Source: a bacterium
GTDB lineage: Bacteria; UBA8248
Length of the DNA stretch: 64,000 bases
Reading direction: 5' to 3'
Assembly (NCBI GenBank): GCA_965221165.1
Contig: CBDCRP010000003.1
Location: 1,312,001-1,376,000, forward strand
A program made the position numbers and the translations under genes. Position 1 is the first letter of the stretch. The number at the start of each line of letters is the position of its first letter. This document shows positions 1,271 to 18,596 of the stretch, in pieces. The notes beneath the pieces are model-generated. The model did no database searches and was not told the DNA's origin. It saw only the letters and a list, made by a program, of their open reading frames with translations.

Positions 1271-2205
1271 TGTTTCGAGCCGTTTTCCTTCCGTGTAGCG
1301 CTTTGAGACTCATCGTTTTGCGCGGCGGTTTTAAGAGAAAACTGGCCCGTGGGCAAGCGCATCAAATCTTTCGCGTGAACCGTCATGAAATCTCCGGTTT
1401 CGAGAGCGAGGGTCACCTCTTCCTTGAGCAGGTCCTGACGCACGACGGTCGCGCCGCAGTCGCAGCCGCCGACTTTCTTCTTGCATGCGGGCAATTTCTT
1501 CTTCACCGACACGTAATGGGAATGCTCGAAGCGAAGACAGCACTTGAGCCGCCCGCAGCCGCCGGAGAGTTTGACGGGGTTTAAGCTCAGGTTCTGATCC
1601 TTCGCCATGCGAACGGAAATGGGGTCGAACGCCTTGAGAAAAGAACTGCAACAATAGGTGCGCCCGCAATCTCCGCATCCGCCCTTCATCCCCGCCTCGT
1701 CGCGAACGCCGATTTGGCGCATCTCCACGCGGACGGAGAGACGCTCGGCAAGCACCCGCACCAGCTTCCTGAAATCCACGCGGCCGTCGGAGGAGAAATA
1801 AAACGTCGCCTTTTTGTTCGAGTGAATGTAGCGAACCTCGACGAGGCGCATGGGCAGCTTCAGTTCCGATATCTTCGCCCGGCAAAAATCATAAGCGCTT
1901 TTCTCGTTCGCTTCGGTGCGAACCACCTTTTTCTCGTCATCCTCGGTGGCTCTCCGCAGCACTCCGGGAAGGGGGTCCGGATAATAGCGCGAATCCATGA
2001 CCCGGGGATTTTCGGATATCTCGCCGAACTCCGTATCGCCGTCTTTGGTCCTGGTCATGACCTTCATGCCGACCTGAAGACGCAAATCCCCATAGGTGTG
2101 ATGAACCGGCCGCGCGCCGAAGCGCGTCTTGACCCCGACCACTCCGATTTTCCGCGTCTCGGGCGGTGCCTCCGCAAGGGCGCCACCATTCGATGTTTCA
2201 CTCAT
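1267..2205 (-). CDS. yaaT: PSP1-domain protein (YaaT/RicT family)
   Basis: Motifs FYFSSDGRVDFRKLV, RQIGVRDEA, CGRTYCC and KLSGGCGRLKCCLRFE; conserved tmk-holB-yaaT-metG order. Confidence 0.9.
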   Translation of the reverse strand: MSETSNGGALAEAPPETRKIGVVGVKTRFGARPVHHTYGDLRLQVGMKVMTRTKDGDTEFGEISENPRVMDSRYYPDPLPGVLRRATEDDEKKVVRTEANEKSAYDFCRAKISELKLPMRLVEVRYIHSNKKATFYFSSDGRVDFRKLVRVLAERLSVRVEMRQIGVRDEAGMKGGCGDCGRTYCCSSFLKAFDPISVRMAKDQNLSLNPVKLSGGCGRLKCCLRFEHSHYVSVKKKLPACKKKVGGCDCGATVVRQDLLKEEVTLALETGDFMTVHAKDLMRLPTGQFSLKTAAQNDESQSATRKENGSKQ

Positions 2206-2214
2206 TTTCTCACC

Positions 2215-3240
2215 TCAAACCCCGGCGGGAACAGTCTCCCGCAGAGAATATACCAAAGTCTCGAGCGTCAGGGACGGGTTGGTATTCCCGCCTCCCACGT
2301 CGCGCATGGCCGACCCCACCCTTTCGAGGGCTTTGGTCAGACCTGCGCTTCCCCAGCGCTCTCCCATGGCGGCCAGCGCCGCCCGTATGTCCGTATGCCA
2401 TAATTCTATCGTCTCGGGCGATTCCTGCGTGATGAGTATATCGCGAAGCAGCCCGCGAAGCATTTCCAAAAAGAGAATCGTCTCGTTTCTTCCCGAAGCC
2501 CCGCTCCCCGCCCGTTCGGAGGCGAGCGTAATGAGGGTCACTTCGTCCGCCCGGCCCGCCGGCGCGCTCAACTCCTCGAGGAACCGCATCGCCTCCTCCC
2601 TGCGCTCGGAGAGAGCGCCTGCGTCCGAGGAAAGGGCGACGCCCAGCCTCCCCATGCTGAGTGAGACGAGTTTCTCCACGTCTGCACCATCCTCCCCGGA
2701 TCGCTCATTGAGGATGGCGACCAAATCCGCGCGCGCCAGAGCCTGAAACCTGAGCCGCCTGCAACGCGAGATCACCGTCGGCAGCAGCGTATGGAGGTTC
2801 GGAGTCACCAGAATCAAAATCGTACCGACGCTCGGCTCTTCCAGCGTTTTGAGCAGGGCGTTCTGACTCACCCGCGTCAGCAGATGCGCATCCTCGATGA
2901 TGAAAACCTGCCGCATCCCCTCGTTGGGACGCTGATGGGCGCGCCAGATCACCTCCTCCCTGATCAACTCCACCTTGATGGAGCGCGACCCCGCTACCGG
3001 GCGGATGGAAACGACATCGGGATGCACATTCGCGCGCACCTTCTCGCACGCGATACAATCCCCGCACGGCGGAGTCTCCCCCGGGCATTGCAAGACCTGG
3101 GCGAAAAGACACGCCGCGCTCGCCTTGCCCACCCCATCGGGGCCATAAAACAAATAAGCGCTCGCCACCTGTCCGGACGATATGTCCCTTCGCAGCAGCC
3201 TTAAGGCTGCGTCCTGGCCGCGGATGGATTTCCAGCCCAT
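2215..3240 (-). CDS. holB: DNA polymerase III delta' subunit
   Basis: AYLFYGPDGVGK, Zn motif CGDCIAC, HPD, NALLKTLEEP, LLPTVISRC; follows tmk. Confidence 0.93.
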   Translation of the reverse strand: MGWKSIRGQDAALRLLRRDISSGQVASAYLFYGPDGVGKASAACLFAQVLQCPGETPPCGDCIACEKVRANVHPDVVSIRPVAGSRSIKVELIREEVIWRAHQRPNEGMRQVFIIEDAHLLTRVSQNALLKTLEEPSVGTILILVTPNLHTLLPTVISRCRRLRFQALARADLVAILNERSGEDGADVEKLVSLSMGRLGVALSSDAGALSERREEAMRFLEELSAPAGRADEVTLITLASERAGSGASGRNETILFLEMLRGLLRDILITQESPETIELWHTDIRAALAAMGERWGSAGLTKALERVGSAMRDVGGGNTNPSLTLETLVYSLRETVPAGV

Positions 3241-3854
3241 TCGAATTTTTCCTTCACAATCGTCACTACCTCCTCGTGCACCTGCTGAATCGCGCCCTCG
3301 CCCAACACGTGAAAACGATGGGGTTCGCGCTTCGCCAGCACCTCGAAACCCGCCTGCACCCTGCGGTGAAACGCCAGACTCTCGCCCTCGAGCCGATCGC
3401 CCACACTCTCCCCCCGCGCGCGAGAGAGGCCTTCTTCCAGCGCTACGGAGAAGAGCAGCGTCAGGTCGGGGGTAATCCCCCCGCTCGCCACCCGGTTCAA
3501 CTCCATCACCATGCGCTCATCCAGCCCCCGCCCGAACGCCTGGTACGCCGTCGTGGAATCGAAAAACCGATCGCAAAGGACGTAGCGTCCCGCCTCTAAG
3601 GCCGGCCGAATCACCTCGCTCACGTGCTGCGCCCGCGCCGCCTCGTAAAGAAGGAGTTCCGTGGCGGCGTCGAGAATTTCATCGCGCGGAGCGAGGAGCA
3701 GCCCCCGAATCTCCTCTCCTGTCTTCGTGCCGCCGGGCTCGCGCGTGGCGAGAACCGGAAACCCCGCCTCCTCCATCCACGCCCGCAGGCGCGCCATCTG
3801 GGTCGACTTGCCGCAACCCTCCACACCCTCGAACGTGATGAAACTACCGCGCAT
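3201..3854 (-). CDS. tmk: Thymidylate kinase
   Basis: FITFEGVEGCGKSTQ P-loop, TREPGG, LCDRFFDSTTAYQ. Confidence 0.96.
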   Translation of the reverse strand: MRGSFITFEGVEGCGKSTQMARLRAWMEEAGFPVLATREPGGTKTGEEIRGLLLAPRDEILDAATELLLYEAARAQHVSEVIRPALEAGRYVLCDRFFDSTTAYQAFGRGLDERMVMELNRVASGGITPDLTLLFSVALEEGLSRARGESVGDRLEGESLAFHRRVQAGFEVLAKREPHRFHVLGEGAIQQVHEEVVTIVKEKFEWAGNPSAARTQP

Positions 3855-3940
3855 CGGCGAAATTTCCTTTCCTCAAAGCGTCTCCGGAGACAGCTTAACA
3901 CAACCGGCCCATGGGGCGGGGCCAGCGGGCGGGCGAGCGA

Positions 3941-5320
3941 TCAGTTCCCATCCAGCTTGCGGTAAATGGTGCGCGTGGCGATTCCCAGAAGACGGGCGGC
4001 GGCGCTTTTGTCACCACCCGTGTGGCGGAGGGTCTCCAGGATCACCCGGCGCTCAACCTCCGCGAGCGGGGTGCCGATCTCGAGGTTGATGAGCGGCAAG
4101 TCCGACGCCATCGGCTGTTCCTGGCTCGAGCGCTCGCCCCGGGCGACTTGCGCAGGCAAATCATCCACCGAAAGAATTTCTCCCCGGCTCAACACCACGG
4201 CGCGCTCCACCATATTTTCGAGTTCCCGCACATTTCCCGGCCAATGGTAGTTCGACATCGCATCGAGCGCCTCGCGTGAAAACGCGAGAGCGGGGCGGTT
4301 GTTCTTCGCGGCGAAACGCTGAAGGAAATGCTCGGCGAGAAAGGGAATGTCGCTGCGCCGATCCCGCAGAGAGGGCAGGTGGATGGTGATCACGTTCAGG
4401 CGATAGTAGAGGTCGTCGCGAAACCTCTTCTCGGCCACGGCGGTTTGCAAGTCCGCGTTGGTGGAAGCCACGATCCGCGCGTCCACCTTGAGGGTTTCCG
4501 TCCCGCCGACGCGCTCGAATTCGCCCTCCTGCAAGACGCGAAGAATCTTCGGCTGAAGAACGGGGGGCATATCCCCGATTTCATCGAGAAACAGCGTACC
4601 CTCGTCCGCGAGCTTGAAGCGGCCTTCCTTCCGGCCCACGGCGCCCGTAAACGCCCCGCGCTCGTAGCCGAAGAGTTCGCTCTCGAGGAGGTTCTCCGGC
4701 AGCGCCGCGCAGTTCACCTTCACCATCGCCTTGCCCGCTCTATCGCTCGCCTCGTGCAGGGCGTTCGCCACCAGTTCCTTGCCCGTCCCGCTCTCGCCCA
4801 GAATCAGGACCGTGGCCGCGGTGGGCGCGACCTGGAGAACCATCTCCTTCACCCGGCGAATCGAGGGGTGGTTGCCCATCATGCCCGAAGTGTCTCTCAG
4901 GCTCTGAAGCTGCGCCCGCAAATCCGCGTTCTCGCGCAGGAGCGCCTGTTTTTCGAGCGCCTTGTCTATCGCTTTGAGAACAACCACGCGCTCCAGCGGC
5001 TTGGTCAAAAAATCATAAGCCCCCTCGCGCATCGCCTCGACGGCCGACTCGATGCTCCCGGCGCCGGAAATCAGAATCACTTCCGTATCCGGGCTGATGC
5101 GCTTGACCTCCTTGAGCAACCCGATGCCGTCCATCCCGGGCATTCTGAGATCGGTGATCAGCAGATTCACGGGCTCGGCGACGAACATCTCGGCGGCGGT
5201 TTCCGCGTCATGCGCCATGGCGACGTCGAACCCCTCCTTGGCGATCATCTTCTGGAGGGCTTCGCGGCTGCCTCGCTTGTCGTCCACCACCATCACGCGC
5301 GCGCCGGCGTGGCCGCTCAT
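3941..5320 (-). CDS. Sigma-54-dependent response regulator (NtrC/AtoC family)
   Basis: Receiver domain (VVDD, TDLRMPGMDG), AAA+ GESGTGKE, GAFTGA, WPGNVRELEN, C-terminal Fis-type HTH. Confidence 0.95.
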   Translation of the reverse strand: MSGHAGARVMVVDDKRGSREALQKMIAKEGFDVAMAHDAETAAEMFVAEPVNLLITDLRMPGMDGIGLLKEVKRISPDTEVILISGAGSIESAVEAMREGAYDFLTKPLERVVVLKAIDKALEKQALLRENADLRAQLQSLRDTSGMMGNHPSIRRVKEMVLQVAPTAATVLILGESGTGKELVANALHEASDRAGKAMVKVNCAALPENLLESELFGYERGAFTGAVGRKEGRFKLADEGTLFLDEIGDMPPVLQPKILRVLQEGEFERVGGTETLKVDARIVASTNADLQTAVAEKRFRDDLYYRLNVITIHLPSLRDRRSDIPFLAEHFLQRFAAKNNRPALAFSREALDAMSNYHWPGNVRELENMVERAVVLSRGEILSVDDLPAQVARGERSSQEQPMASDLPLINLEIGTPLAEVERRVILETLRHTGGDKSAAARLLGIATRTIYRKLDGN

Positions 5321-7530
5321 GCCTTCACCTCCTGCACCACGGGGAGCGGCAGTTCGACGATGAAAGTGGCCCCCGCCCCCTCCTCGCTTTCAAAGCGGAT
5401 GCTTCCCTTGTGCTCGGTGATGATCTGCTGGCTCAGCACGAGTCCGAGGCCCGTTCCATTCACCTTCGTCGTGAAAAACGGCGTGAATAAAGAGGCCTGA
5501 TCCTTGAGGCTGATCCCGGCGCCGCTGTCCGATATCCTGATGGTGAGGTGCTGGTTTTCCAGTTCGGTCCTGACCAGGAGACGACCACCATCGGGCATCG
5601 CGTCGAACCCGTTCAAGATAAGATTCTGAATGGCGACGCGCATTTGCGTTTCATCCAGGACGACGTCGGGCACATCTCTTTCCAGTTCCTTTTCAATCCG
5701 GATTTTTCTGCTCGCCGCCACTTCCGCGTGGAAAATCAGTAAATCCTCGATCATCTCGTTGCAGTCGACCGATGTTCTCTCCGGGCTCGGCATCCGCACG
5801 AATTTGAGATAATCGGCCGTCACCTGGCTGATAATATCCACTTCCGCCCTCACGGATCTGAGCAACGCCCACGCCTCGGAGGTATCCGACTCCTTGAATT
5901 GCGACAACTCATCGCCGAGCAATTCCGCGTTCAGGTTGATGGCCGAGAGCGGGTTGCGTACGGAATGCGCAATCTGGGTGCTCATCTTACCGACGATCGA
6001 GAGCCTGTCGCGTTGCAAGACTTCCTTCTCGAGCGCCTTGCGCCCGGTCACATCCTTCAAATACAAAATCACTTGCAGCGTCGCTCCCGAGGCGTCGAGA
6101 ATCGGGTAGGTGTAGTATTCCATCTCCATCCGGCGCCCATCGTCCCACGAAATCGATTTTTCGAAAAAGCCCGGTTCGCCGGTCGCAAAAGTATCGACGA
6201 TCAGGGATCGCTCGACGAAAGGCTCTGGCACCGCGGTGAGCGGCGATATCTCCCATTGTTGATCCAGCAACTCGGAAACCTCGCGCCCGAAGAGCCTGGC
6301 CATCGAGCGATTGAGCATCCGGATGCGAAAATCCTTGTCCAGAATGCCGATGGCGTCCGTGATGCCGTCGAACAGCGCCTGAAGCCGTCTGTTGCTCTCC
6401 AGCACCTGCTCGGACCAGTGTATCCTGTCCTCGGCCCGTATGCGCCTGCGCTCGCGATCGAGTATCAAAAGGGCGGCCAGAATCAAGGAGATGAACGCGA
6501 AACCCGTCAAGAGCAGACCTTTTCGGAACAAGCGCCCGATCAACCCGACGAACTCCGCAGATGGCGCCGTGAGGGCGAAAGTCCATCTCTCATGCCCCAC
6601 CGGGAAGCTGCTGAAAGCCGTCAGGTATCGCAGGCTTTTCTCTTTTTTCTCGGGCCTCAAGTCCAGGTGCCAATCGAAACCCTTCTCTTCCGTCTTCATG
6701 CGCCCGACCAGTTTTTCCAGTCTCTCATCCCCCAATGCGCGCGCGAGGGTGGACAAATGGATGCCCTCCAGCCGGGGGATGCCCGGAGGAAAGATGATTC
6801 TACCCTCGCCGTCCACGAGCCACGCCCGTCTCCGGCTTCCCGATTGAACGGGTTCGACGAACGCGCGCACCAAATCCGCCATGGAAATGCGCGCGTAGAG
6901 CCATTCGCGCTTTCGCTGCCTCTCTCCTCCTTTGGGCCCATCCTCCTTCGACGCCACGGGCACCGCCACGAACAGGGAGGCGACCCTTCGGGCCTCGTCC
7001 CGAATCACGAGAAGACAGGCGCCTTCCGGCCAGGCGCAGCCCCGTAACGTATCGAGGTATTCCTTCGGAATCGCGGCGCTCGACTCGTGGCCTTCCTGCA
7101 GATACCCCACCTCGCTCACGCGGAACCTTCCGCCCAGCCTTTCGTACAAGCCGCTCATCGCCGCCATTCTTCCCGGATGATGGGGTTCGATCGTGCGCAG
7201 AAAGCCCGCGCTGTAGCGCAAAGACGCCGTGAGCGCCTCCAGGAAAGAAGCAATCCGGTCGCCTGCCTGCTCCACGAGAAGAAGCTGCTGGCGGTTGAAT
7301 CTCTCTGCGATCTCGGCCTTGGCGTCCACGTAGTGCCGATTGGAGAGAAAAATCAATATCCCTATCAAAACGAACGTCCAGGCTATCGTATGATACTGGA
7401 ACTTGCGGTTCACCCGGCGCGATTGCGCGATTCGCGAGCGCGCCGTCCCGTAAGGCCGCGGCAGCCCCCGCTTGCGCCATCTATCGAGAATTCCCCTCAA
7501 CAACCTCGTCCATGCGCTCGACATAAGCAT
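5317..7530 (-). CDS. Membrane sensor histidine kinase (two TM segments, extracytoplasmic domain, PAS)
   Basis: H-box IAHSVRNPL, N-box NLILNGFDAM, DSGAGI, PFFTTK, GTGLGL. Start moved from 7794 to about 7530/7524 because the longer ORF runs through the divergent promoter and into the next gene. Confidence 0.9.
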   Translation of the reverse strand: MLMSSAWTRLLRGILDRWRKRGLPRPYGTARSRIAQSRRVNRKFQYHTIAWTFVLIGILIFLSNRHYVDAKAEIAERFNRQQLLLVEQAGDRIASFLEALTASLRYSAGFLRTIEPHHPGRMAAMSGLYERLGGRFRVSEVGYLQEGHESSAAIPKEYLDTLRGCAWPEGACLLVIRDEARRVASLFVAVPVASKEDGPKGGERQRKREWLYARISMADLVRAFVEPVQSGSRRRAWLVDGEGRIIFPPGIPRLEGIHLSTLARALGDERLEKLVGRMKTEEKGFDWHLDLRPEKKEKSLRYLTAFSSFPVGHERWTFALTAPSAEFVGLIGRLFRKGLLLTGFAFISLILAALLILDRERRRIRAEDRIHWSEQVLESNRRLQALFDGITDAIGILDKDFRIRMLNRSMARLFGREVSELLDQQWEISPLTAVPEPFVERSLIVDTFATGEPGFFEKSISWDDGRRMEMEYYTYPILDASGATLQVILYLKDVTGRKALEKEVLQRDRLSIVGKMSTQIAHSVRNPLSAINLNAELLGDELSQFKESDTSEAWALLRSVRAEVDIISQVTADYLKFVRMPSPERTSVDCNEMIEDLLIFHAEVAASRKIRIEKELERDVPDVVLDETQMRVAIQNLILNGFDAMPDGGRLLVRTELENQHLTIRISDSGAGISLKDQASLFTPFFTTKVNGTGLGLVLSQQIITEHKGSIRFESEEGAGATFIVELPLPVVQEVKA

Positions 7531-7630
7531 TCCCAGGAAAATCGGCTGGTTTCGACCAGCCTTGTCGCCCAAGGTCCGGGATTCGGGTATGAGGGTCCGA
7601 AAACCACTCCCCCGCCCCGGCGCCACCAGC

Positions 7631-7659
7631 TTGACAGGGGGGAAATCCCCCCATATCTT
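7631..7659 (+). promoter_or_regulatory. Sigma-70-type promoter, copy 1
   Basis: TTGACA (7631-7636), 17-nt spacer, TATCTT (7654-7659). Confidence 0.85.
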
Positions 7660-7666
7660 GCACAAA

Positions 7667-7693
7667 TTAGCACTCCATGAGCCGGAGTGCCAC
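7667..7693 (+). promoter_or_regulatory. CIRCE operator (HrcA binding site), copy 1
   Basis: TTAGCACTC-CATGAGCCG-GAGTGCCAC versus consensus TTAGCACTC-N9-GAGTGCTAA. Confidence 0.92.
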
Positions 7694-7748
7694 ACCAAAT
7701 CCAGCGCGGAAGACTTGCAACCGTGACCGGCAACCTCAAGAGTACGGG

Positions 7749-9785
7749 ATGGCCACAATGAACAAGATGACAAACGAATCCAGCGAATTTGCACTTTTCT
7801 CCGAGGAGGAGAATCGGGCTCTTGACGAACGCACGTTTATAAAGAATGTAAGAGGCAAGCCAGCGACTTGCGTAAATTGCCTAATTCGCGGTAAGGACGT
7901 GCAACTAAAACCCGAAGAACGCATCCGGCAACTATGGCTGTCCCGCTTAATCGACCAATATGACTATTCCCCCTCACGCATCGCGCTTGAATACTCGATC
8001 ATTTTTGGCCGCGACAGTTCCAAGCGAGCCGACATCGTCGTGTTCGACGCTGACCGTCCCACCGTACCTTACATCATAATCGAAGTGAAACAGGGCAAAC
8101 TGCGCGATGGGAAAGAACAACTTCGCTCCTATGCTCATGCAACCGGCGCGCCGCTGGTTATGTGGAGCAATGGAATTCTAGCCGAAGTCTGGCACCGCAA
8201 GAATCCCAACTACTTCGTTCCCATTCATCATCTCCCACGCGCCAACCAGACGATTGAGGCCATTGTCGATCAGCCTTGGACCATCGAAACCCTTATCTTC
8301 AAGGAGAATGAACGCGAGCGCGAAGGGTCCAAGGCCCGGTCGCTGCGTGATCTGATTGTCGAGATGGAGAACGAAGTTCTCGCGAACGCTGGCGTGGACG
8401 TGTTCGAAGAGGTGTTCAAACTTGTCTTCACCAAACTCTACGACGAGATGTTTCACTACCGGGGCAGACATCCGTTCTTGCGCTTTCGCAACAGCAACAC
8501 GGCAGCACAACTGAAGAGTACGATACAGGAACTTTTCGACGAGGCGAAACAGCAATGGCCCGGTGTGTTCTTGTTCGACGAACGCATCCGCCTTTCCCCT
8601 GATCACTTACAGGTCTGTATCGGCTCACTCGAAGAATGGAAGCTGTTCAACTCCAATCTCGACGTGATCGACGACGCATTCGAGTATCTCGTGAACAAGT
8701 CGTCGAAAGGTGAAAAAGGCCAATACTTCACGCCACGCTGGGTAATCGACATGTGTGTGAAGATGCTCAACCCGCAAGAACATGAGGCGGTAATTGACAC
8801 CGCTTGCGGTTCATCGGGCTTCACCGTGCATACCATGTTCCATGTCTGGCGCAACATCATCGCCGACATGGGATTAAAGGAAAGCCACCTGCTCACGATG
8901 GATGGCAAACCCTCGCGTTGTGAAGACTATGTGCGCGACAAAATGTTCGCAATTGACTTCGATGAAAAGAGCGTTCGCGTCTCGCGCTGTCTGAATCTGA
9001 TTGCGGGCGATGGAGAAACCAACGTCCTGCATCTAAATACGCTCGATTGGCCCAAGTGGGACGAGACCGTGAAGGAAGATGATTGGTTGGATGCCTACGG
9101 CGAAGGCTGGCGGCGGTTGCGTAAACTGCGGGCTAAGACTAAACAAGCGGACTACCGACAGTTCAAGTTCGAAATCCTCATGGCCAATCCGCCCTTCGCA
9201 GGCGACATCAAACAATCCGACATGCTTGCTCCCTATGACTTGGCCCATAAAAAGACAGGTAAGCTGGAACGCGCCGTTGGCCGTGACCTTTTGTTCATCG
9301 AGCGCAACCTCGACTTCCTAAAACCCGGCGGGCGCATGGCGATTGTTTTGCCGCAAGGGCGGTTCAACAACTCGTCCGATCAGCGGGTACGTGAGTTCAT
9401 CATGGAACACTGTCGTATTCTTGCCGTTGTGGGCTTGCACCCAAACACATTCAAACCCCACACTGGCACCAAGACCAGTGTCCTGTTTGTTCAGAAATGG
9501 AACGACAATCCCGCTGCCGGACCACTTTGCCCGAAGGTGGACGATTACAACATATTCTTCGCCACTCAACAGGTAGAAAGCGTCAACAACAGCGGCGAGA
9601 AGGTTTACGTGCGCAACAACGACGGAAACCCGATGCGGGATGCACATGGGCATTTCATTGTCGCTCATGATCTGTTCAATCATGAAGGAAAGACACAAAA
9701 CGGGGTCGCCGAAGCCTTTCGAGAATTCGCTGCCGGGGAGGGCTTAAGTTTTTTTCGCCCCGCCCCTTCGACGGTAGCCAACTAA
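7749..9785 (+). CDS. Fused restriction endonuclease-N6-adenine methyltransferase (Type IIB/IIG-like RM subunit)
   Basis: N-terminal HsdR-N-like PD-(D/E)xK region (PEERIRQ, RADIVVF, IIEVK); MTase motifs GQYFTPR, DTACGSSGF, NPPF. Start uncertain among ATGs at 7749, 7758 and 7767. Confidence 0.9.
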   Translation: MATMNKMTNESSEFALFSEEENRALDERTFIKNVRGKPATCVNCLIRGKDVQLKPEERIRQLWLSRLIDQYDYSPSRIALEYSIIFGRDSSKRADIVVFDADRPTVPYIIIEVKQGKLRDGKEQLRSYAHATGAPLVMWSNGILAEVWHRKNPNYFVPIHHLPRANQTIEAIVDQPWTIETLIFKENEREREGSKARSLRDLIVEMENEVLANAGVDVFEEVFKLVFTKLYDEMFHYRGRHPFLRFRNSNTAAQLKSTIQELFDEAKQQWPGVFLFDERIRLSPDHLQVCIGSLEEWKLFNSNLDVIDDAFEYLVNKSSKGEKGQYFTPRWVIDMCVKMLNPQEHEAVIDTACGSSGFTVHTMFHVWRNIIADMGLKESHLLTMDGKPSRCEDYVRDKMFAIDFDEKSVRVSRCLNLIAGDGETNVLHLNTLDWPKWDETVKEDDWLDAYGEGWRRLRKLRAKTKQADYRQFKFEILMANPPFAGDIKQSDMLAPYDLAHKKTGKLERAVGRDLLFIERNLDFLKPGGRMAIVLPQGRFNNSSDQRVREFIMEHCRILAVVGLHPNTFKPHTGTKTSVLFVQKWNDNPAAGPLCPKVDDYNIFFATQQVESVNNSGEKVYVRNNDGNPMRDAHGHFIVAHDLFNHEGKTQNGVAEAFREFAAGEGLSFFRPAPSTVAN

Positions 9786-9803
9786 GCGAACTGTTGGAGG
9801 GGC
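9735..9803 (+). other. Candidate -1 programmed ribosomal frameshift signal
   Basis: GGAGG at 9737-9741; T_TTT_TTT at 9749-9755 in the RM frame; 6-nt spacer; stem 9762-9775 pairing with 9790-9803; the -1 frame is open into the S ORF. Confidence 0.65.
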
Positions 9804-11212
9804 TAGAAGCCTCAATCTTGTCAATCAACGAATGGCGTGAAGACAACGTCTTTTTTCGGCTCGATAGTGAGTATCAGTCCAAGACTCATGTTGTGGCTAT
9901 CGAGTCGCTCAAACAGTTTGGGGCTGTTCAACTCAAAGATGACCAACCCGAGATCATCCATCCGCATGAAATCAAGCGGGAGTATGTCGAAGAGGATGGG
10001 GTTTGGTTCCTTCGAGCCCAGAATGTTAGGCCACTAAGAATTAGCCCAACGAACAAGGTATTGATTTCAAAGGACGACGCTAACAAGCTTACCAAAAACG
10101 TGATTAAAACTAATGACGTGTTGATAACCAGAACAGGCGCTAACCGCGGAGAGTGTGCAATTTTTGATCGAAAAGAGTGCGCCATTGCCTCTTCACATAC
10201 TTTCATCATCCGTCCACAGAAAATTGATCCGAAATTTCTAACTGTTTTTATGAATTGCGTTTATGGAAAAACTCAAATCGACAAAGGTGTTTATGGTGCG
10301 GCGCAGCCTGAAATTGCGCCTTATTACCTTGGTAATATCTGGATTCCGACTGTCAGCGCCTCTTTTGTCATGCGCATTAAGTCTATATTCGATACCTCAA
10401 CGGCAAATAACACTTTGACCGAGACCAAGCAAAAGGAAGCTGAGGAAACGCTGCTTGCTGCTCTTGGGCTGGCGGATTGGACGCCGCCAGAACCTCTCAG
10501 CTATATCGCCCGCGCCAGTAATGCCTGCACCGCTGGGCGGTTAGATGCACAGTATTTCATGCCTGCCAAAGAACAGGTATGCCAGTCTCTCGCTGCGATG
10601 CCAGGAAGCAGCTTGGGCGAGTGCGTTGATTGCATACGTGAAATGTTCGTACCAAACAGTGCTACTAACACGATGAAATTACGAAATTACGATGTGACCG
10701 ATGCGCTTGTACCCATTCTCAACTCTGAGAAACAGCCCTCTTTCGCCGTCGAGATCGGCAGCAACAAGAAAACTTTCAAAGACGGCGACGTTGTGATCTC
10801 CCGTTTACGAGCCTACCTAAAGGAAATCGCCGTTGTGCGAATCAACGATGAGTTCCCCTCGGTCGGCTCATCGGAGTTCATCGTTCTGCGACTGAAAAAA
10901 AGCAAGTCCGATATCTCGCCGGAAACGCTTATGGTATTCCTTCGTTCAATCCCGGTGCAGACCATTCTGAAGTGGTGCCAAGACGGATCACAACACCCGC
11001 GTTTCAGTGAGGGCGACTTGCTGTCTATTACAGTGCCCGATGCCGTAGTCAGAGTCTCCAAAAAGATCACCAAGAGCATTCAAGAAGGTTTCGCCGCTCG
11101 CCACCAAGCCCGCCAGCTTCTCGAAGAAGCTAAGCGCGCTGTTGAGATCGCCATTGAAAACGGAGAAGCCGCCGCAATGACCTTCCTTGACCAAGCCGTA
11201 GGGGCAAGCTGA
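9794..11212 (+). CDS. Restriction-modification specificity (S) subunit with two TRDs
   Basis: Internal repeat FRLDSEY / GRLDAQYF; TRD-type segments (FLRAQNV, DVLITRTG, GAAQPEI; GDVVISRLRAYL, GSSEFIVLR, GSQHPR); helical spacers. Only a TTG start with no clear SD. Confidence 0.85.
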   Translation: MEGLEASILSINEWREDNVFFRLDSEYQSKTHVVAIESLKQFGAVQLKDDQPEIIHPHEIKREYVEEDGVWFLRAQNVRPLRISPTNKVLISKDDANKLTKNVIKTNDVLITRTGANRGECAIFDRKECAIASSHTFIIRPQKIDPKFLTVFMNCVYGKTQIDKGVYGAAQPEIAPYYLGNIWIPTVSASFVMRIKSIFDTSTANNTLTETKQKEAEETLLAALGLADWTPPEPLSYIARASNACTAGRLDAQYFMPAKEQVCQSLAAMPGSSLGECVDCIREMFVPNSATNTMKLRNYDVTDALVPILNSEKQPSFAVEIGSNKKTFKDGDVVISRLRAYLKEIAVVRINDEFPSVGSSEFIVLRLKKSKSDISPETLMVFLRSIPVQTILKWCQDGSQHPRFSEGDLLSITVPDAVVRVSKKITKSIQEGFAARHQARQLLEEAKRAVEIAIENGEAAAMTFLDQAVGAS

Positions 11213-12003
11213 TGACACTTCCTTCTCATGCAGCAGACTGGATGAGCCGGGCCGAGATCGACTATATCGGTCCTTTCCTCAAAGCTTGGGCCGCGTTCAA
11301 CGCATGGTATCGCCACGACTCGGGACAGGCTCAGGAGCGCGACATGCTGGAGCATGTGAAAAACCGGCCTAACGCGGTGCGGCGGAGCATTCTACCTTTG
11401 TTGGATAAAAACAATGAAACCGCTGATGCGCTGAAACTAAAGCAAGCAGTCTACGACCTTCAACAACGCCTCGACGCCATTCATCTTGAGGTAACACACA
11501 AAGGAGTCAATGAACGTATTTCGCTTCGCACAGTTTGCATCCAATCCCAGCCTTTGCAACAGCGGCAGCATGTCCGCTATAGGAACGAGTTCAAAGCAGA
11601 AAGGATTCAGGGTGGAGCAATCGAGATCACAGTCACTTCTCAACAAACACAGCAAGTACGCTTTAAGCACACACAAGAGCAATATGCTCCCAACGAAGTT
11701 TATGCTCTTCCCAGCTTTACCGAGAGCCTCACGGAAGACCAGCGCAACACACTTATTGGGTTCTATGACAGTTGCAACCCGCGTCCTGTGCGCGACCTCG
11801 TTATGGGAGGCGGGCCAGCATTGTCCATAGGGACCATGCAGTTCCATTGCAGCCCGGAGGATCTATTATCTGGGTTGGTAGAAACTATCTATGCGATGCG
11901 AAATGCATTATTTCACGGTGAAGTGGAACCTGAATCGCAAATCTTAGCCTGCTATGAACCAGCTTACCGGATCGTTATGCAGTTCCTCACCTGCATTCAG
12001 TAA
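11212..12003 (+). CDS. HEPN-superfamily-like protein (putative RNase)
   Basis: N-terminal helix FLKAWAAFNAWY and C-terminal RxxxxH motif (YAMRNALFHG); TGATG overlap with the S gene. Confidence 0.65.
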   Translation: MTLPSHAADWMSRAEIDYIGPFLKAWAAFNAWYRHDSGQAQERDMLEHVKNRPNAVRRSILPLLDKNNETADALKLKQAVYDLQQRLDAIHLEVTHKGVNERISLRTVCIQSQPLQQRQHVRYRNEFKAERIQGGAIEITVTSQQTQQVRFKHTQEQYAPNEVYALPSFTESLTEDQRNTLIGFYDSCNPRPVRDLVMGGGPALSIGTMQFHCSPEDLLSGLVETIYAMRNALFHGEVEPESQILACYEPAYRIVMQFLTCIQ

Positions 12004-12066
12004 AAAATGACCCCTCGGGAACGAAAAAGGATACCCACACCACTCCTCCGCCCCGGCGCCACACGC

Positions 12067-12095
12067 TTGACAGGGGGAAAATCCCCCCATATCTT
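12067..12095 (+). promoter_or_regulatory. Sigma-70-type promoter of hrcA, copy 2
   Basis: TTGACA (12067-12072), 17 nt, TATCTT (12090-12095). Confidence 0.85.
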
Positions 12096-12102
12096 GCACA
12101 AA

Positions 12103-12129
12103 TTAGCACTCCATGAGCCGGAGTGCCAC
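12103..12129 (+). promoter_or_regulatory. CIRCE operator, copy 2
   Basis: TTAGCACTC-N9-GAGTGCCAC directly upstream of hrcA, the canonical autoregulatory position. Confidence 0.95.
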
Positions 12130-12173
12130 ACCAAAATACTGCGACGAAGACGCCGCACCGGGAGACTTTCAAA

Positions 12174-13226
12174 ATGGACGCCCTGGAACTTGCCCAGAGA
12201 AACCGGGAAATCCTGCGCGCCATCATCAACATTTTCGTGGATACGGGCGAACCCGTGGGGAGCCGCACGCTCTCGAAGTATTCGGACCTAGCCTTGAGCC
12301 CCGCCACCATCCGCAACATCATGAGCGACCTGGCCGACGCGGGCTTTCTCACCAAGCCCCACATCTCCTCCGGCAGGCTCCCCACCGACCTGGGGTATCG
12401 CGTTTTCGTCGACGATCTGATGGATTCCCATACCCTCACGAGCGAGGAGCAGGAATCCATGCGCCTCGGCGCTTCCGCGCAAGCCGCTCAAATCGAACAG
12501 GTGCTCGCGCAGGCCACGCGCATACTCTCCGAACTCACCAACACGGCGGGGCTCGTGCTCCTGCCCGCAGGGGAGCAACTCCACTTCAAGCACATCAACT
12601 TCGTCAAGATGTCGGAAGAAAAAACCCTGGCCGTCATCGTCTCCATGAGCGGAGTGGTGCAAAACCGCGTCATCCCGACCGATACTCCCATCAGCCAGGA
12701 TGAGATGAACAGGGTTTCCAACCTGCTGAACGAGGAGTTCAGCGGTCTCGCCTTAAGAGAGGTGCGCGGGAAGATAATCCAGAAAATGACCCATGCGCGC
12801 GACAACCTCGATACCCTCTACCAGCAGGCTCTCAAGCTCAGCAAAGAGGCGCTCTCAGAAAGCGAAGCCGCGCAGGAATCCGTTTTCGTGGAGGGGGCGT
12901 CACGCGTGTTCTCACAACCCGATTTCGCCACCAACGCCGAGAAGCTCCAGACTCTCTACCGCACGTTCGAGGAGAGGGAGAAGCTCGTCCGCCTGCTGGA
13001 CAAATGCCTCGAATCCTCGGACATCACCATTCTCATCGGTTCCGAGAACGATTTCGAGGAGATGAAGGATTGCAGCGTCGTCGCCCAGCGCTACTACATG
13101 GACGACCGCCCGCTGGGCAGCATCGGCATCATCGGGCCCAAGCGCATGCGCTACGATCGCGCCGTGTCGCTGGTGGAATGGACGGCGGATTCGGTATCGA
13201 AATTCCTCTCCTCCGGAAAGCGTTAG
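12174..13226 (+). CDS. hrcA: Heat-inducible transcription repressor HrcA
   Basis: TGEPVGSRTL, SPATIRNIMSDL, PHISSGRLPTDLGYR, GIIGPKRMRY; GGAG before ATG 12174. Confidence 0.97.
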   Translation: MDALELAQRNREILRAIINIFVDTGEPVGSRTLSKYSDLALSPATIRNIMSDLADAGFLTKPHISSGRLPTDLGYRVFVDDLMDSHTLTSEEQESMRLGASAQAAQIEQVLAQATRILSELTNTAGLVLLPAGEQLHFKHINFVKMSEEKTLAVIVSMSGVVQNRVIPTDTPISQDEMNRVSNLLNEEFSGLALREVRGKIIQKMTHARDNLDTLYQQALKLSKEALSESEAAQESVFVEGASRVFSQPDFATNAEKLQTLYRTFEEREKLVRLLDKCLESSDITILIGSENDFEEMKDCSVVAQRYYMDDRPLGSIGIIGPKRMRYDRAVSLVEWTADSVSKFLSSGKR

Positions 13227-13275
13227 GCAAAAAAGCGCTTTCATCCCCATATCCCCCGGCGGAGGTCATGATTCC

Positions 13276-14355
13276 TTGAACATCGCCGACGCCCTCAAAA
13301 TCCTGGGTCTGGAGAAAAGCGCCTCCACATCCCAACTCAAGAGCGCCTACAAAAAACTGGCACTGGAATTCCATCCGGACAGAAACCCGGACGACCCCGA
13401 GGCGGAAAGGCGCTTCAAACAGATAATCATCGCGCATGAAATCCTGAAAGACCCGAAACGCCCAGACCCCCACGGAACACCCCGTGCGAAGAAATCCACT
13501 CAGCCCCGAAACGGGTACGAGGAAAAATGGGAGGATATTTTCTCCCACATTTTCCGAAACGCGCGCGAATCGGGCGATGCGGAAAAAAGCGCACCCCAGG
13601 ACCTGCACGCCCAAATCGAGGTGACGCTCGAGGACCTCCTGGGAGACACCACAAAGGAAATTCCCGTCTCGCGCCGGATGCGCTGCGCTTCATGCGGGGG
13701 GCGCGGCGCCGATCCCCATACCCGAATGAGCGCCTGCCCCGCGTGCAAGGGCGCGGGCGAGGTTCGCTACCGTCAAGGACTCGCGGAGTTGCGCATCCCC
13801 TGTTCGGCCTGTGCGGGGAGCGGCGAATACACGGGCGAGGCGTGCGGGGCCTGCGGGGGAGAGGGCCGCACGGCCGGGCGAGATACCGTGAAGGTGGCGA
13901 TTCCCGCCGCGGCCCAAGAAGGCGCGCAAATCAAAATCAAGGGCAAGGGCGATGAGGGCGCGGACGAGGCGGGAGACCTCATCGTCACGGTGCGCGCAAA
14001 ACCCCACCCGATATTCGAGAGAGAGGGCAACCACATCCTCTTCGACCTGCCGGTGAGTTTTTCTCAAGCCGCCCTCGGCCACGAAGCCCTCGTGCCCACG
14101 CTTAAGGAAGCCCGGAAAATCAAGATTCCCGCCGGAACCCAATCGGGCCGGGTGTTTCGCTTGAAGGGAGAGGGATTATCGCCTGCGGGAGGGCGGAACA
14201 CGGGCGATCTGCGCGTCCGCGTGATCATCGAAACGCCCACCAAGCTCAACCAGCGTCAGCGGGAAATTTTAGCCGAGTTTCAAAGAATTTCCTCGCCCTC
14301 CACGCATCCGCGAACCCGGAAATTTCTGGAGAAAATGAAATCCCGTCTCGAATGA
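13276..14355 (+). CDS. dnaJ: DnaJ-family co-chaperone
   Basis: J-domain with HPD, four CxxCxGxG repeats, C-terminal GTQSG and GDL motifs; no obvious G/F-rich linker. Confidence 0.88.
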   Translation: MNIADALKILGLEKSASTSQLKSAYKKLALEFHPDRNPDDPEAERRFKQIIIAHEILKDPKRPDPHGTPRAKKSTQPRNGYEEKWEDIFSHIFRNARESGDAEKSAPQDLHAQIEVTLEDLLGDTTKEIPVSRRMRCASCGGRGADPHTRMSACPACKGAGEVRYRQGLAELRIPCSACAGSGEYTGEACGACGGEGRTAGRDTVKVAIPAAAQEGAQIKIKGKGDEGADEAGDLIVTVRAKPHPIFEREGNHILFDLPVSFSQAALGHEALVPTLKEARKIKIPAGTQSGRVFRLKGEGLSPAGGRNTGDLRVRVIIETPTKLNQRQREILAEFQRISSPSTHPRTRKFLEKMKSRLE

Positions 14356-14472
14356 CATGGCCCGGCCCGCCTTGTTGCGCCCGAAATTTCTTGCTACATA
14401 TCTCTTCCGGAAAACAAAATTCACCAGCCTGTCCGATATATCCACGAAAATCAGACATAGGAGCATTACACA

Positions 14473-15558
14473 TTGTCGAATCAAGCCCTCATCGACGAGT
14501 TCATCGAGAAGACGCAAAAACTGAACGGCCGGCCCGTGCGCGAGCGCGAGGCGTGGAACAACGAGGCGAGCGCCGACGCCATCCGCCATTTCGCATACGG
14601 CATCGACGACGACAACCCGCTTTGGCTGGACGCCGGATACGCAGCCGGCACCGCCTACGATAACGTCATGGCGCCACCCGCGTTTCTGGTGTCTGTCCTC
14701 TACCCGATTCTGCACGGAGCGCCCATGGAGGTTCCGCTCTCCTCCCTCATCGGGGGCGTGGAGTTCGAATGGGAAAAACCCATACCGCTCGGAGCCAAGC
14801 TCCGCGCGGAGTCCATCCAGAAAGATTCCTTCGTCAAGACGAACAAGGCGGGCCGACAACTTATCTTCATCATCTCCGAGTGCACCTACTGGAACGAGGA
14901 GGATGAGGTCGTCGCCAGGGGCACCGGCACGATGATAAGGACCCTCCAGGAGGGAAACGCGCTCCTCTACGAGAGGCCGATCAAGCAATACGGCGAGGCG
15001 GAGTTCCAGGAAATTGAACACGCCTACGAGGCCGAGGAGAGAAAAGGCGGCGAGAAGCGCCGCTTCGCGGAAGTATCCGTCGGGGATGAACTCCCGCCCA
15101 TGCTTCGCGGCCCCCTCACCATCGGCGACATGGTGGCCTGGAACGCGGGCAACGGCCCATCCTACAAGGCGGGAAGACGCGGCTATCTGGACCTCAAAAA
15201 AGCGCCGCACAACGCCGTCCTCATCCCCCAGATCGGCATCAAGGTGAAAAACTCCCAGCAACACGAGGACTTCAACCTCGCCTCGGGGCGCGGGATGCCG
15301 GGTCCGTTCGACAACGGCGTCATGCGCTTCGCCTGGGTGAGCCCCTTCATCACCAACTGGATGGGGGACGATGCCTTTCTCAAGAACCTCTACGTCCAGG
15401 TGCGCCGCCCCATGATCTATGGCGACACCATCCGGCACACGGGCAAGGTGGTCGAGAAAAACGAGGCCGACGGCACCGTGAAGGTGGAAATTACCGGAAC
15501 GAACCAGGAAGGCGAACTGGCGACGGCGGGCTCGGCCGTGGTTCGGCTGCCGGAATAA
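14473..15558 (+). CDS. Double-hotdog MaoC-like dehydratase
   Basis: AIRHFAYGIDDDNPLW and APPAF in the N-terminal half; second hotdog domain with GDELPP and YGDT. Confidence 0.8.
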   Translation: MSNQALIDEFIEKTQKLNGRPVREREAWNNEASADAIRHFAYGIDDDNPLWLDAGYAAGTAYDNVMAPPAFLVSVLYPILHGAPMEVPLSSLIGGVEFEWEKPIPLGAKLRAESIQKDSFVKTNKAGRQLIFIISECTYWNEEDEVVARGTGTMIRTLQEGNALLYERPIKQYGEAEFQEIEHAYEAEERKGGEKRRFAEVSVGDELPPMLRGPLTIGDMVAWNAGNGPSYKAGRRGYLDLKKAPHNAVLIPQIGIKVKNSQQHEDFNLASGRGMPGPFDNGVMRFAWVSPFITNWMGDDAFLKNLYVQVRRPMIYGDTIRHTGKVVEKNEADGTVKVEITGTNQEGELATAGSAVVRLPE

Positions 15559-15571
15559 AACGCGAGAGCCT

Positions 15572-16450
15572 GTGAAGAAAAAATGGCTCGAACTCATGGT
15601 TCAGGTTCGTGACGATCTGGCCGAGGAGGCATCCGCCCGCATATTGGACGCAGGCGCATCTGCCGTCGAGCAGCGAGACGGCGCGGGGGAAGCATCGCTC
15701 CTCATCACGCACATCGCCCTTGAAGACGGTGCGACGGCGAAACTCCGCACGATAGAAGCCCTCCTCACCGGCCTGGGCGTTGCGAAGAGCGCCATCACAC
15801 TCAAAAACATCGAGGATCAGGACTGGATCGCCCAGTCACGGGGTCATTTCAAGGGCGAAGCCTATGGGGAGAAACTCTGGGTGAGGCCGCCCTGGGATGA
15901 AAACGAGACGCCGGGCGGGCGCATCGAACTGATCCTGGAGCCGGGCCTCGCCTTCGGCACGAGCAGGCATCCCTCCACGCGCCTGGCCCTGCTCGCCGTT
16001 GAAAACGAATGCGCCAGAAAACCTCCCGAACGCATGGTGGACTTAGGGTGTGGTTCGGGCATCCTGGGCGTCGCCGCCCTTCTCTATGGCGCAAGGCAGG
16101 TGGCGGCGTTCGACCTGGACCCGAAGGCCGTGGAGGAGACCATGGCGCTTGCGCAAAGAAACGGGGTAGGAGATTGCATGACGACGCGCAACACGACACT
16201 TGCGGCAGGCGCGCTCGAAGACTGGTGGGGCCTCGTTGATTTCGTCGCGGCGAACATCTTCCTGGGCGCTCTCAGAGAACTCGCGCCGCTCATTCACGGG
16301 GCGCTCGCTCCCGGGGGCCGGGCCGTTCTCTCAGGGATAGGCTACGAGCAGGCGGACGCTCTCGCCCGCATCTACAGAGAGGCCGGCTTCACGCTCGAGA
16401 AGACGAGCCGAATCGAGGAGTGGGCGAGCATCGAGGTTTCAAAACCATGA
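15572..16450 (+). CDS. prmA: Ribosomal protein L11 methyltransferase
   Basis: EPGLAFGTSRHPST, DLGCGSGIL, ANI, LSGI; dnaJ-prmA-rsmE synteny. Confidence 0.93.
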   Translation: MKKKWLELMVQVRDDLAEEASARILDAGASAVEQRDGAGEASLLITHIALEDGATAKLRTIEALLTGLGVAKSAITLKNIEDQDWIAQSRGHFKGEAYGEKLWVRPPWDENETPGGRIELILEPGLAFGTSRHPSTRLALLAVENECARKPPERMVDLGCGSGILGVAALLYGARQVAAFDLDPKAVEETMALAQRNGVGDCMTTRNTTLAAGALEDWWGLVDFVAANIFLGALRELAPLIHGALAPGGRAVLSGIGYEQADALARIYREAGFTLEKTSRIEEWASIEVSKP

Positions 16451-17217
16451 CGCGCGACGGACTGCGGCTTTTCTACGTCGAGCCCGAAGCGGTTCAGGGC
16501 GAGCGAATCGTCCTGGGGACGGAGGAATCCGCGCACATCCGCCGCGTCCTCAAGATGAAGGCGGGCGCGATTTGCCGCGTGGCCACCGAGGATGGGCGTG
16601 AATACAAGGTGGAGCTGACGGAAATCGACGCCGATGAAAGCACCGCCCAAATCATCGAGCGCCTGCCCGAAAGACCGCCCTCCCCCATGTCGATATCCTT
16701 AGGACTTCCCCTGCTCAAAGGGGAGCGGTTCGAGTGGGTCCTCCAGAAAGCTTGCGAACTGGGTGTCGATACGTTTTATCCGCTTGCGCTCGATAGGTGC
16801 GAAGTCAGGATTCAGGAGAAAAGGAGCGCCGAGCGCCACAGACGCTGGCGGCGAATCGTACTGGAAGCCGCCAAGCAGTGCGACCGCGTGCCCCCGCCTG
16901 TTGCGCATCCACTCGGCGACCTCAAGGGTTTTCTCGCCGAAACGAAGGATTTTGATCTCAAAATCATGGGGTATCTGGGAGAAGAAGCAATTTCCGCCAA
17001 ACAAGCGCTATCGCGAGTGCGCCGGGATACGACCGCCGCGCCGCTTCGCGTCGCCCTCCTGACCGGTCCCGAGGGAGACCTCACGAACGAGGAATCAGGA
17101 GGAGCGATGGATTGCGGTTTCCTGCCGGTATCCCTGGGCCCCAGAATCCTGCGCGCAGACACGGCTCCCGTCTCGCTCGTCACCATCGTGCAACACGCCC
17201 TGGGGGATATGGGTTGA
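16447..17217 (+). CDS. rsmE: 16S rRNA m3U1498 methyltransferase
   Basis: HIRRVLK, KACELGV, EAAKQC, GPEGDL, LGPRILRADTA; ATGA overlap with prmA. Confidence 0.95.
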   Translation: MTRDGLRLFYVEPEAVQGERIVLGTEESAHIRRVLKMKAGAICRVATEDGREYKVELTEIDADESTAQIIERLPERPPSPMSISLGLPLLKGERFEWVLQKACELGVDTFYPLALDRCEVRIQEKRSAERHRRWRRIVLEAAKQCDRVPPPVAHPLGDLKGFLAETKDFDLKIMGYLGEEAISAKQALSRVRRDTTAAPLRVALLTGPEGDLTNEESGGAMDCGFLPVSLGPRILRADTAPVSLVTIVQHALGDMG

Positions 17218-17233
17218 TATGTCCCCCTATTGT

Positions 17234-17262
17234 TTGACACCTTTTTCGCGCCGCTCTACTTT
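17234..17262 (+). promoter_or_regulatory. Probable sigma-70 promoter of purD
   Basis: TTGACA-17 nt-TACTTT upstream of purD. Confidence 0.55.
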
Positions 17263-17294
17263 GTGGTCTTCACCATTTTAAGTAGGAATATCCG

Positions 17295-18575: not shown

Positions 18576-18596
18576 CCCCGTGACTCCCGGTTCAGA

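Follow-up and report, generated by a model that had tools for sequence, protein, structure and literature searches.

HrcA represses promoters that carry the controlling inverted repeat of chaperone expression (CIRCE) and is released under protein-folding stress, its repressor activity depending on free GroEL. Among restriction-modification (RM) systems, BcgI is a Type IIB enzyme with separate RM and specificity (S) subunits, the EcoprrI type I RM locus harbors the gene for the PrrC anticodon nuclease, and insertion of RM genes with long target duplication was reportedly described by Nobusato et al. in 2000. Furuta, Abe and Kobayashi (2010; PMC2853133) recognize such insertions by the presence of R and M homologues, an insert of <20 kb, a duplication of >30 bp and the lack of any other mobile element, and they further require the repeats to correspond to just one copy of the sequence where a genome is without the insert; they treat "chance insertions between repeated sequences" as a separate class. 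Promoter reuse before unrelated genes is well documented in the work on "putative mobile promoters" by Nijveen, Matus-Garcia and van Passel (2012; PMC3575422), which cites the Cit+ case of Blount et al. The HrcA regulon of delta-proteobacteria, as described by Rodionov et al. (2004; PMC545781), is small and made up of chaperone genes, with groESL as the constant member and hrcA-grpE-dnaKJ or rpoH present in some. Here, we describe a locus that touches all of these systems, in a 64,000-nucleotide stretch of bacterial DNA (the window; GCA_965221165.1, contig CBDCRP010000003.1, positions 1,312,001 to 1,376,000, or C3:1312001-1376000 of an assembly of 3,686,044 bases in 3 contigs, genome code G000). 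A foreign three-gene cassette comprising an RM fusion gene, an S subunit gene and a gene for an HEPN-like protein lies between a sensor histidine kinase gene and hrcA, and it is flanked by two copies of a block that holds a sigma-70-like promoter and a CIRCE-like operator. Our favored explanation, held with moderate confidence, is that an insertion with long target duplication placed the cassette behind an intact hrcA promoter-operator, so that it would be transcribed from the first copy and repressed by HrcA.

The repeat finder returned one long direct-repeat family in 6500-13500, located at 7592-7699 and 12028-12135, with 92% identity and a start-to-start distance of 4436. A genome-wide search with 7560-7760 led to two places only, the query itself and 12039-12151 (against 7603-7714, 92%, E 5.1e-40), and a chance origin of the repeat is excluded. 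Copy 1 (7603-7714, + strand; 112 bp, boundaries accurate to about ±3 bp) has a counterpart in relatives that directly adjoins the kinase flank, and copy 2 (12039-12151, + strand; 113 bp) lies upstream of hrcA. A preliminary description of the window had reported a 97-bp block with a promoter and a CIRCE occurring twice, 4436 bp apart; this was borne out, and the block proved longer. The sigma-70-like promoter of copy 1 (7631-7659, + strand) consists of TTGACA, a 17-bp spacer and TATCTT, with hexamers that equal those of copy 2 and are conserved in genus relatives, and the promoter scan placed its counterpart in copy 2 at 12067-12095 (+ strand). These two were the only sigma-70-like sites in 7300-13400, with 10/12 matches each, against a mean of 4.0 sites in shuffled sequence. 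The CIRCE-like inverted repeat of copy 1 (7667-7693, + strand), TTAGCACTC-N9-GAGTGCCAC, is identical to the one that the CIRCE scan found in copy 2 (12103-12129, + strand). Both start 7 nt past the -10 element and carry 2 mismatches to the consensus TTAGCACTC-N9-GAGTGCTAA, which in the copy 1 site both lie among the final three right-arm bases.

Over the full 112/113-bp block, the two copies are identical in 104/113 columns and differ at nine positions, comprising 8 substitutions and one 1-bp indel. Four of the substitutions fall within 7603-7699 (at 7611, 7627, 7628 and 7642), in agreement with the four mismatches counted earlier in the 97-bp block, and the indel, after 7696, is to be added to them. 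As had been stated for the four mismatches, the differences spare the functional elements: the -35 hexamer (7631-7636), the -10 hexamer (7654-7659) and the CIRCE-like repeat (7667-7693, arms and spacer included) contain 0/9, and the difference at 7642 is within the spacer between -35 and -10.

Two runs of a single sample, which may be the one the genome came from, gave unitigs that agree with the window without a single difference. The pieces extend from the kinase into copy 1 (7111-7672), from copy 1 into gene 1 of the cassette (7670-8657), from gene 3 into copy 2 (11289-12108) and from copy 2 into hrcA (12106-12464), with breaks only in the identical core of the repeat and no unitig spanning the whole cassette. 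Because these four pieces reproduce the junctions with 0 differences, the arrangement is real and not an invention of the assembly. The confirmation by reads that had been called for was thus obtained for both junctions, and a single piece running across both copies was not seen. A mis-join that created the second copy or misplaced the cassette would be in keeping with the 8.47% contamination reported for the genome and with unitig breaks inside the identical core, but it has a very low probability, because each of the two runs yields four unitigs that carry copy-specific variants at depths like those of the flanks and because the copies differ at nine positions, unlike those of a collapsed or duplicated assembly.

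The hrcA region is present in 22/22 other genomes of the genus, and a second copy of the promoter block in 0/22. We examined 19 of the genus loci (L004-L022), three further matching genus genomes not being included as loci. In 16/19, nothing is interposed between the kinase flank and a single promoter/CIRCE followed by hrcA; of the remaining three, two hold other cargo and one (L022) has no kinase flank inside the locus. The closest species, G005 (L117), aligns with window positions 1-7714 at 94.6% over 7.7 kb and with 12039-19226 at 90.5% over 7.2 kb, and the left and right matches overlap there by 115 bp, corresponding to the duplicated segment. Given the empty site in 16/19 genus loci, which also answers the comparison of the kinase-hrcA interval proposed in the preliminary description, the cassette is therefore an insertion with long target duplication. 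The inserted DNA (7715-12038, + strand; 4,324 bp) is absent from this site in the other genus genomes examined, and its guanine-cytosine (GC) content of 0.42-0.56, compared with 0.58-0.65 in the flanks (400-bp windows), upholds the earlier remark on its lower GC. Across 41 other family genomes, the cassette DNA had no match apart from partial methylase-gene matches (64-83%, elsewhere in 4 genus genomes) and one 31-bp match in another genome. The insert holds three genes, and neither an integrase nor a transposase was found in it by the open reading frame (ORF) list or Pfam. Without the insert, the kinase-hrcA intergenic region comprises about 200 bases between divergent genes. Integration of the integron-like or tRNA-type site-specific kind was rejected, the insert having no integrase and the target being an intergenic promoter. 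All the features by which Furuta et al. define insertion with long target duplication were found here, namely R and M homologues, an insert of 4,324 bp, a 112/113-bp repeat and an empty site, together with a repeat that is not multi-copy (exactly two copies in 3.69 Mb).

A different order of events would have a tandem promoter duplication arise first and the cassette enter later between the copies, or a circle from a related donor integrate in Campbell fashion. Such histories could accommodate the observations that copy 2 differs mainly at its two edges and is more derived with respect to all relatives, which could reflect a different source or error-prone synthesis, and that identity to G005 drops from 94.6% on the left of the insert to 90.5% on the right; the separate class of chance insertions between repeats in Furuta et al. 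also lends them some precedent. However, a tandem promoter duplication without cargo occurs in 0/19 genus loci, no donor with the cassette beside hrcA was found in the family genomes or in 79 loci carrying related cassettes, and the nearest match of each copy is the other one (104/113, against at most 102/113 for any of 13 relatives), which favors duplication of resident sequence, so we consider these orders very unlikely. The import of one flank from another lineage was likewise considered and dropped: G005 is the closest genome on both sides, all genus members are about equally close within hrcA (about 89-95%), and there is no clear recombination tract.

Two other relatives carry foreign genes at the same intergenic spot. 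In G014 (L118 6812-7900, + strand of the locus), a 362-aa AbiJ_NTD4 protein (E 1.2e-20) with a C-terminal R-N-P-F-G-H motif of the R-N-x3-H form is encoded by a gene transcribed away from hrcA, and this looks like another defense-type insertion at the kinase-hrcA site. In G003 (L119 3946-5166, - strand of the locus), the cargo is a 406-aa alpha/beta hydrolase with a signal-like N-terminus, and the foreign DNA ends within about 8 bp of the hrcA -35. No flanking repeats were found around the cargo of G014 or G003. The occurrence of three different insertions among 19 loci suggests that the kinase-hrcA interval is a permissive site.

DNA homology between the insert and related cassettes is confined to the coding block, 7743/7758 to about 12005, with the gene 1 start codon at one end and the gene 3 stop codon at the other; 34 foreign bases lie before the former and 35 after the latter. 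In 11 relatives, the 160 bp upstream of gene 1 show no similarity to the window or, one close pair excepted, to each other, and a consensus sigma-70 match, sought by the same rule as in the window, occurs there in 0/11. The cassette appears to be without a promoter of its own. Copy 1 points into it, with 89 bp between the -10 and the gene 1 start codon, and neither the stretch from copy 1 to gene 1 nor that from gene 3 to copy 2 has a terminator-like site on the + strand. Because neither a promoter of its own nor such a terminator-like site was detected, transcription of the cassette most likely begins at copy 1, with a predicted leader of about 83 nt that contains the CIRCE, and read-through from the cassette into copy 2 and hrcA is possible. 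Copy 1 could instead be a silent scar, the cassette being expressed from an unrecognized promoter in the junction or inside gene 1, or not at all, and HrcA having no effect on it. The related cassettes, presumably expressed despite their 0/11 score for a consensus promoter, speak for this alternative, as does the fact that transcription from copy 1 is itself predicted from sequence. Nevertheless, the -35, spacer length and -10 of copy 1 are those of the genus-conserved hrcA copy, its orientation and distance suit the first start codon, the way to gene 1 is free of + strand terminator-like sites, and a core-identical copy of a working promoter would hardly be silent; a silent copy 1 is accordingly an unlikely outcome. 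Control of the cassette by HrcA is probable, and it is the most economical prediction because the cassette was inserted, the promoter-operator copy before it is complete and conserved, and no promoter of its own was found.

Four CIRCE-like sites (≤3 mismatches) are present in the genome: one immediately before the groES promoter, with 1 mismatch, the two copies described above, and one weak site with 3 mismatches. A single CIRCE (≤3 mismatches) precedes hrcA in 17/19 relatives' loci. The organism likely has a functional HrcA-CIRCE circuit, because hrcA is present, the groES CIRCE is near consensus and the hrcA site is kept in 17/19 loci. The weak site (G000:C3:144544-144570; L125 1501-1527) has a diacylglycerol-kinase-like gene on one side and an ABC transporter ATPase gene on the other and may be due to chance. 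A search for CIRCE near homologous RM genes, which the preliminary description had proposed as a check, yielded 0 sites (≤3 mismatches) in the 79 related cassette loci (923,443 bases). The link between CIRCE and the cassette is hence a single event and not a recurrent design. Streptococcus thermophilus has a heat-induced Type I system, yet CIRCE only at dnaK and groESL (PMC3192767), and in pneumococcus RM phase variants affect competence, with HrcA acting as a chaperone regulator (PMC10602874). A full-text literature search on CIRCE, HrcA and restriction-modification, limited to the text available to it, returned no description of a CIRCE-controlled RM operon.

The placement of the mismatches outside the functional elements had been taken as a hint that both copies are maintained, and this argument fails once the differences are polarized with 13 relatives. 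Copy 2 clearly has the derived state at six positions and, with the sister species G005 as guide, at two more, against one 1-bp deletion in an A run that is derived in copy 1 (8:1, P = 0.039; 6:1, P = 0.125, when only unambiguous changes are counted). For 13/13 relatives, copy 2 is no closer than copy 1. Of the nine differences, one lies in the 63 bp that begin with the -35 and end with the CIRCE (P = 0.007 under uniform spread), and the distribution of differences with respect to genus-invariant columns was not significant (Fisher P = 0.23). Because 8/9 differences arose in the hrcA copy, which was already constrained, the avoidance of the core reflects constraint on that copy, and the pattern is silent on constraint on copy 1, whose small amount of change is explained equally well by a fairly recent origin. 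The changes derived in copy 2 cluster at both edges of the block (equivalents of 7611-7628 and 7701-7708); they may be a footprint of the duplication process or a later tuning of hrcA.

These data also bear on the proposal that the promoter-operator duplicate was kept by selection as an adaptive wiring, in which stress-induced restriction and HEPN activity would be beneficial, for example through chaperone titration during phage infection. The intactness of copy 1 throughout the -35, -10 and CIRCE, together with the sparing of the core, is compatible with it; the 8% divergence between the copies indicates that the arrangement may not be very young; and, with nuclease and methylase joined in one polypeptide, co-induction would keep restriction and protection in balance. 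Set against this are the assignment of all but one of the differences to copy 2, the result of the genus-invariant column test, the lack of any CIRCE in the related cassette loci and the occurrence of the arrangement in 1/22 genus genomes. Moreover, the known mode of insertion with long target duplication fully accounts for the duplication, and the adaptive explanation favored earlier is not needed. Selection for the wiring is a possible but rather unlikely cause. A still bolder picture would be a defense module gated by folding stress, in which HrcA holds the restriction enzyme and the HEPN-like protein low, heat or chaperones flooded with capsid protein de-repress them, duplication offers promoter-less defense cassettes a general route to host stress regulation, and the copy 2 changes possibly stem from error-prone synthesis; we treat this as doubtful speculation.

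Returning to insertion with target duplication as the preferred explanation, the foreign cassette, with its Type IIB-like fusion, S subunit and HEPN-like protein, would have entered the divergent kinase-hrcA intergenic region and duplicated about 112 bp of the target, by chance including the whole hrcA promoter and CIRCE operator. With no more than 34 bp of its own DNA before the first start codon, it would then be transcribed from copy 1, repressed by HrcA and de-repressed by heat or protein-folding stress, and hrcA would keep its own promoter-operator copy. The regulatory link is most plausibly a side effect of the insertion route. Because the duplication gives both divergent genes full upstream regions, insertions of this type, which leave the upstream regions of both flanking genes whole, are likely to have a better chance of survival.

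Several observations weigh against this account. The unitig breaks in the core leave room for a sub-population with an empty site. The promoter scan is crude, so that the 34-bp junction or gene 1 may hold a promoter that is weak or not of the sigma-70 type, and the lack of a consensus promoter in the upstream 160 bp of all 11 relatives may mean that the cassette family is expressed from promoters that the scan does not recognize. The arrangement occurs in one genome only, and exact-pattern scans of metagenomes for a second example, one for the left junction and one for the promoter/CIRCE core, each gave 0 stretches. Finally, the likeness of the two copies (104/113) is barely above that of copy 1 to its best orthologue (102/113), and a single recent duplication may be too simple an account of how they arose.

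If copy 1 is active, the RM insertion mode itself would hand a cassette a host promoter and a stress-responsive operator, a non-chaperone foreign operon would join a normally tiny regulon, and the locus would be a concrete example of newly acquired defense genes gaining regulation. The junction pair is clean and suited to the study of the mechanism of insertion with long target duplication. The present weight of the case is moderate, as it comes from one genome with a regulatory step that is inferred.

The first cassette gene (gene 1, 7749-9785, + strand) encodes a 678-aa nuclease-methyltransferase fusion with Pfam HSDR_N_2 PD-(D/E)xK and N6_Mtase domains. It matches PADLOC MTase_I PDLC03034, filed as "Type I methyltransferase," end to end with 1245 bits, and its best solved relative is RM.BsaXI (8w0p, E 1.7e-22), the similarity covering the methyltransferase part only (residues 303-584). 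Residues D95, E112-V-K114 and N480-P-P-F483 are invariant in 12 homologues (25 homologues in a second alignment), and the protein is 68-88% identical to those of the 79 related loci, which belong to Alpha- and Gammaproteobacteria, Acidobacteriota, Chloroflexota, Verrucomicrobiota and one cyanobacterium. Gene 2 (9794-11212, + strand) encodes a 472-aa S subunit (PADLOC Specificity_I PDLC03197, 1.2e-43 over residues 1-471; Pfam Methylase_S), whose identity to homologues is 24-67%, with conservation of the neighboring genes. Gene 3 (11212-12003, + strand; 263 aa) has a start that overlaps the S stop by 1 nt. No family for its product was found in Pfam, NCBIfam or PADLOC, and no Pfam HEPN family matched even at E ≤ 1. 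Its 399 homologues are nearly all annotated as hypothetical, two UniRef entries being named "Apea-like HEPN." The protein carries the motif R230-N-A-L-F-H235, of the Rx4-6H type, in which R230, N231 and H235 are invariant in 29 sequences. The AlphaFold2 (AF2) model (predicted local distance difference test, pLDDT, 86.4) has a helical core with an inserted beta domain and places the motif at the end of helix 215-234. Foldseek gave no match of this model to the PDB at E ≤ 0.001, and VIA-align gave weak, tied Z values of 4.5-5.6, below its meaningful level for helical proteins, to the HEPN chains 1wwp, 8xdj, 5yep and 7ae2 and to AbiA 8oz7. The invariant R-N-x3-H motif and the weak fold matches make HEPN-like a reasonable label. 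Of the RM-S-HEPN operon named in the preliminary description, the RM fusion and the S subunit are thus confirmed by Pfam and PADLOC, and the HEPN assignment keeps the qualified form just given. A complex prediction for the gene 3 product with the fusion protein gave no answer (score 0.00, mark 0.32) and counts neither way.

On the left, the cassette is flanked by the sensor histidine kinase gene (5317-7524, - strand; Pfam HATPase_c 3e-23, PAS_4 and HisKA). We infer its start at 7524 from the N-terminus conserved in relatives, the longest frame of the ORF finder reaching 7794. Between this start and copy 1, positions 7544-7561 form a GC-rich hairpin that is terminator-like on the - strand and whose G005 orthologue differs in both arms. 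To the right of the cassette, hrcA (12174-13226, + strand; 350 aa, Pfam HrcA 1.3e-65) is followed by a DnaJ-type co-chaperone gene (13276-14355, + strand; Pfam DnaJ, DnaJ_CXXCXGXG and DnaJ_C). Past the dnaJ-like gene, a 442-aa ORF on the - strand (14269-15597) has no Pfam match at E ≤ 0.001.

The contexts of the cassette family are variable and partly mobile or defense-related. Gene 3 stands beside the RM and S genes in 42/79 loci, several loci being cut by contig ends. The 45 flanking ORFs of 21 loci include resolvases (4 loci), HsdR-like and Mrr-like genes (2 loci each), and an rve fragment, a phage-type integrase and an HNH gene (1 locus each), and no constant partner gene was found beside the cassette among the 21. 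The serine resolvase genes lie just upstream of the cassette in L039, L070, L071 and L073; an Mrr-like gene directly follows gene 3 in L058 and L112, and the HNH gene follows it in L067. Flanking direct repeats within 2.5 kb could be sought in 72/79 loci, of which 71 had none and one (L110) had a repeat; within that distance, long target duplication is not a regular property of the family. The L110 repeats (4624-5138 and 9638-10152; 515 bp, direct, 87.6%) surround a fusion-gene homologue and could represent either a further long target duplication or a pair of mobile-element copies.

Regarding its class, Type IIB enzymes are a better comparison for the module than a motor-less Type I system, because HsdR-like genes are rare near the related loci and none exceeds the cut-off in the organism's own genome. 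An HsdR-like gene lies within 6 kb in 2/79 related loci, and the search for hsdR over the family cut-off in the own genome found none, with one match at 54 bits; a Type I system with a missing HsdR was rejected as the general state, given just 2/79 loci with such a neighbor. An assignment to MADS, the methylation-associated defense system, was rejected as well, with MAD2 at 320.9 bits (NCBIfam cut-off 720), MAD5 at 130.7 (cut-off 400) and an insert of three genes. The cassette resembles BsaXI (PDB 8w0p) in joining nuclease and adenine methyltransferase in one polypeptide, in having a separate two-domain S subunit and in encoding no HsdR motor subunit; unlike BsaXI, to which the similarity covers only the methyltransferase part, it carries a conserved third gene. 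With PrrC and EcoprrI, it shares an HEPN-type protein encoded inside an RM cassette, but the gene 3 product has 263 aa, is without an ATPase domain and has no sequence match to a named HEPN family. This analogy suggests that gene 3 might encode a back-up toxin restrained by the RM proteins.

With respect to the HrcA/CIRCE regulon, the locus has the TTAGCACTC-N9-GAGTGC-type repeat beside a sigma-70 promoter, in a genome with hrcA and with CIRCE at groES and hrcA; an RM operon is not among the members described in the accessible text of PMC545781. The word "promoter" has 0 occurrences in the main text of PMC2853133, and the regulatory side effect is therefore not discussed there by Furuta et al. 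To the insertions that they describe in that text, the locus compares in being an RM unit of <20 kb without a mobility gene, in having flanking repeats of >30 bp that are unique in the genome, and in a repeat identity of 92%, which falls inside their tabulated range (e.g., 384/412). It differs from them in that the target is a complete promoter and operator and the cassette came with almost no upstream DNA; the duplication therefore supplies its likely transcription signals. Thus, the insertion mode is known, and what is unusual is the predicted regulatory outcome, the passing of a promoter-operator to a promoter-less cassette. As in the mobile promoters of PMC3575422, whose typical pair shares 92% over at least 50 bp, a highly similar promoter region stands before two unrelated genes of one genome, an arrangement that can change their regulation; in contrast to those, the second copy is here traced to target duplication at the insertion of foreign genes, and it includes a defined operator, the CIRCE.

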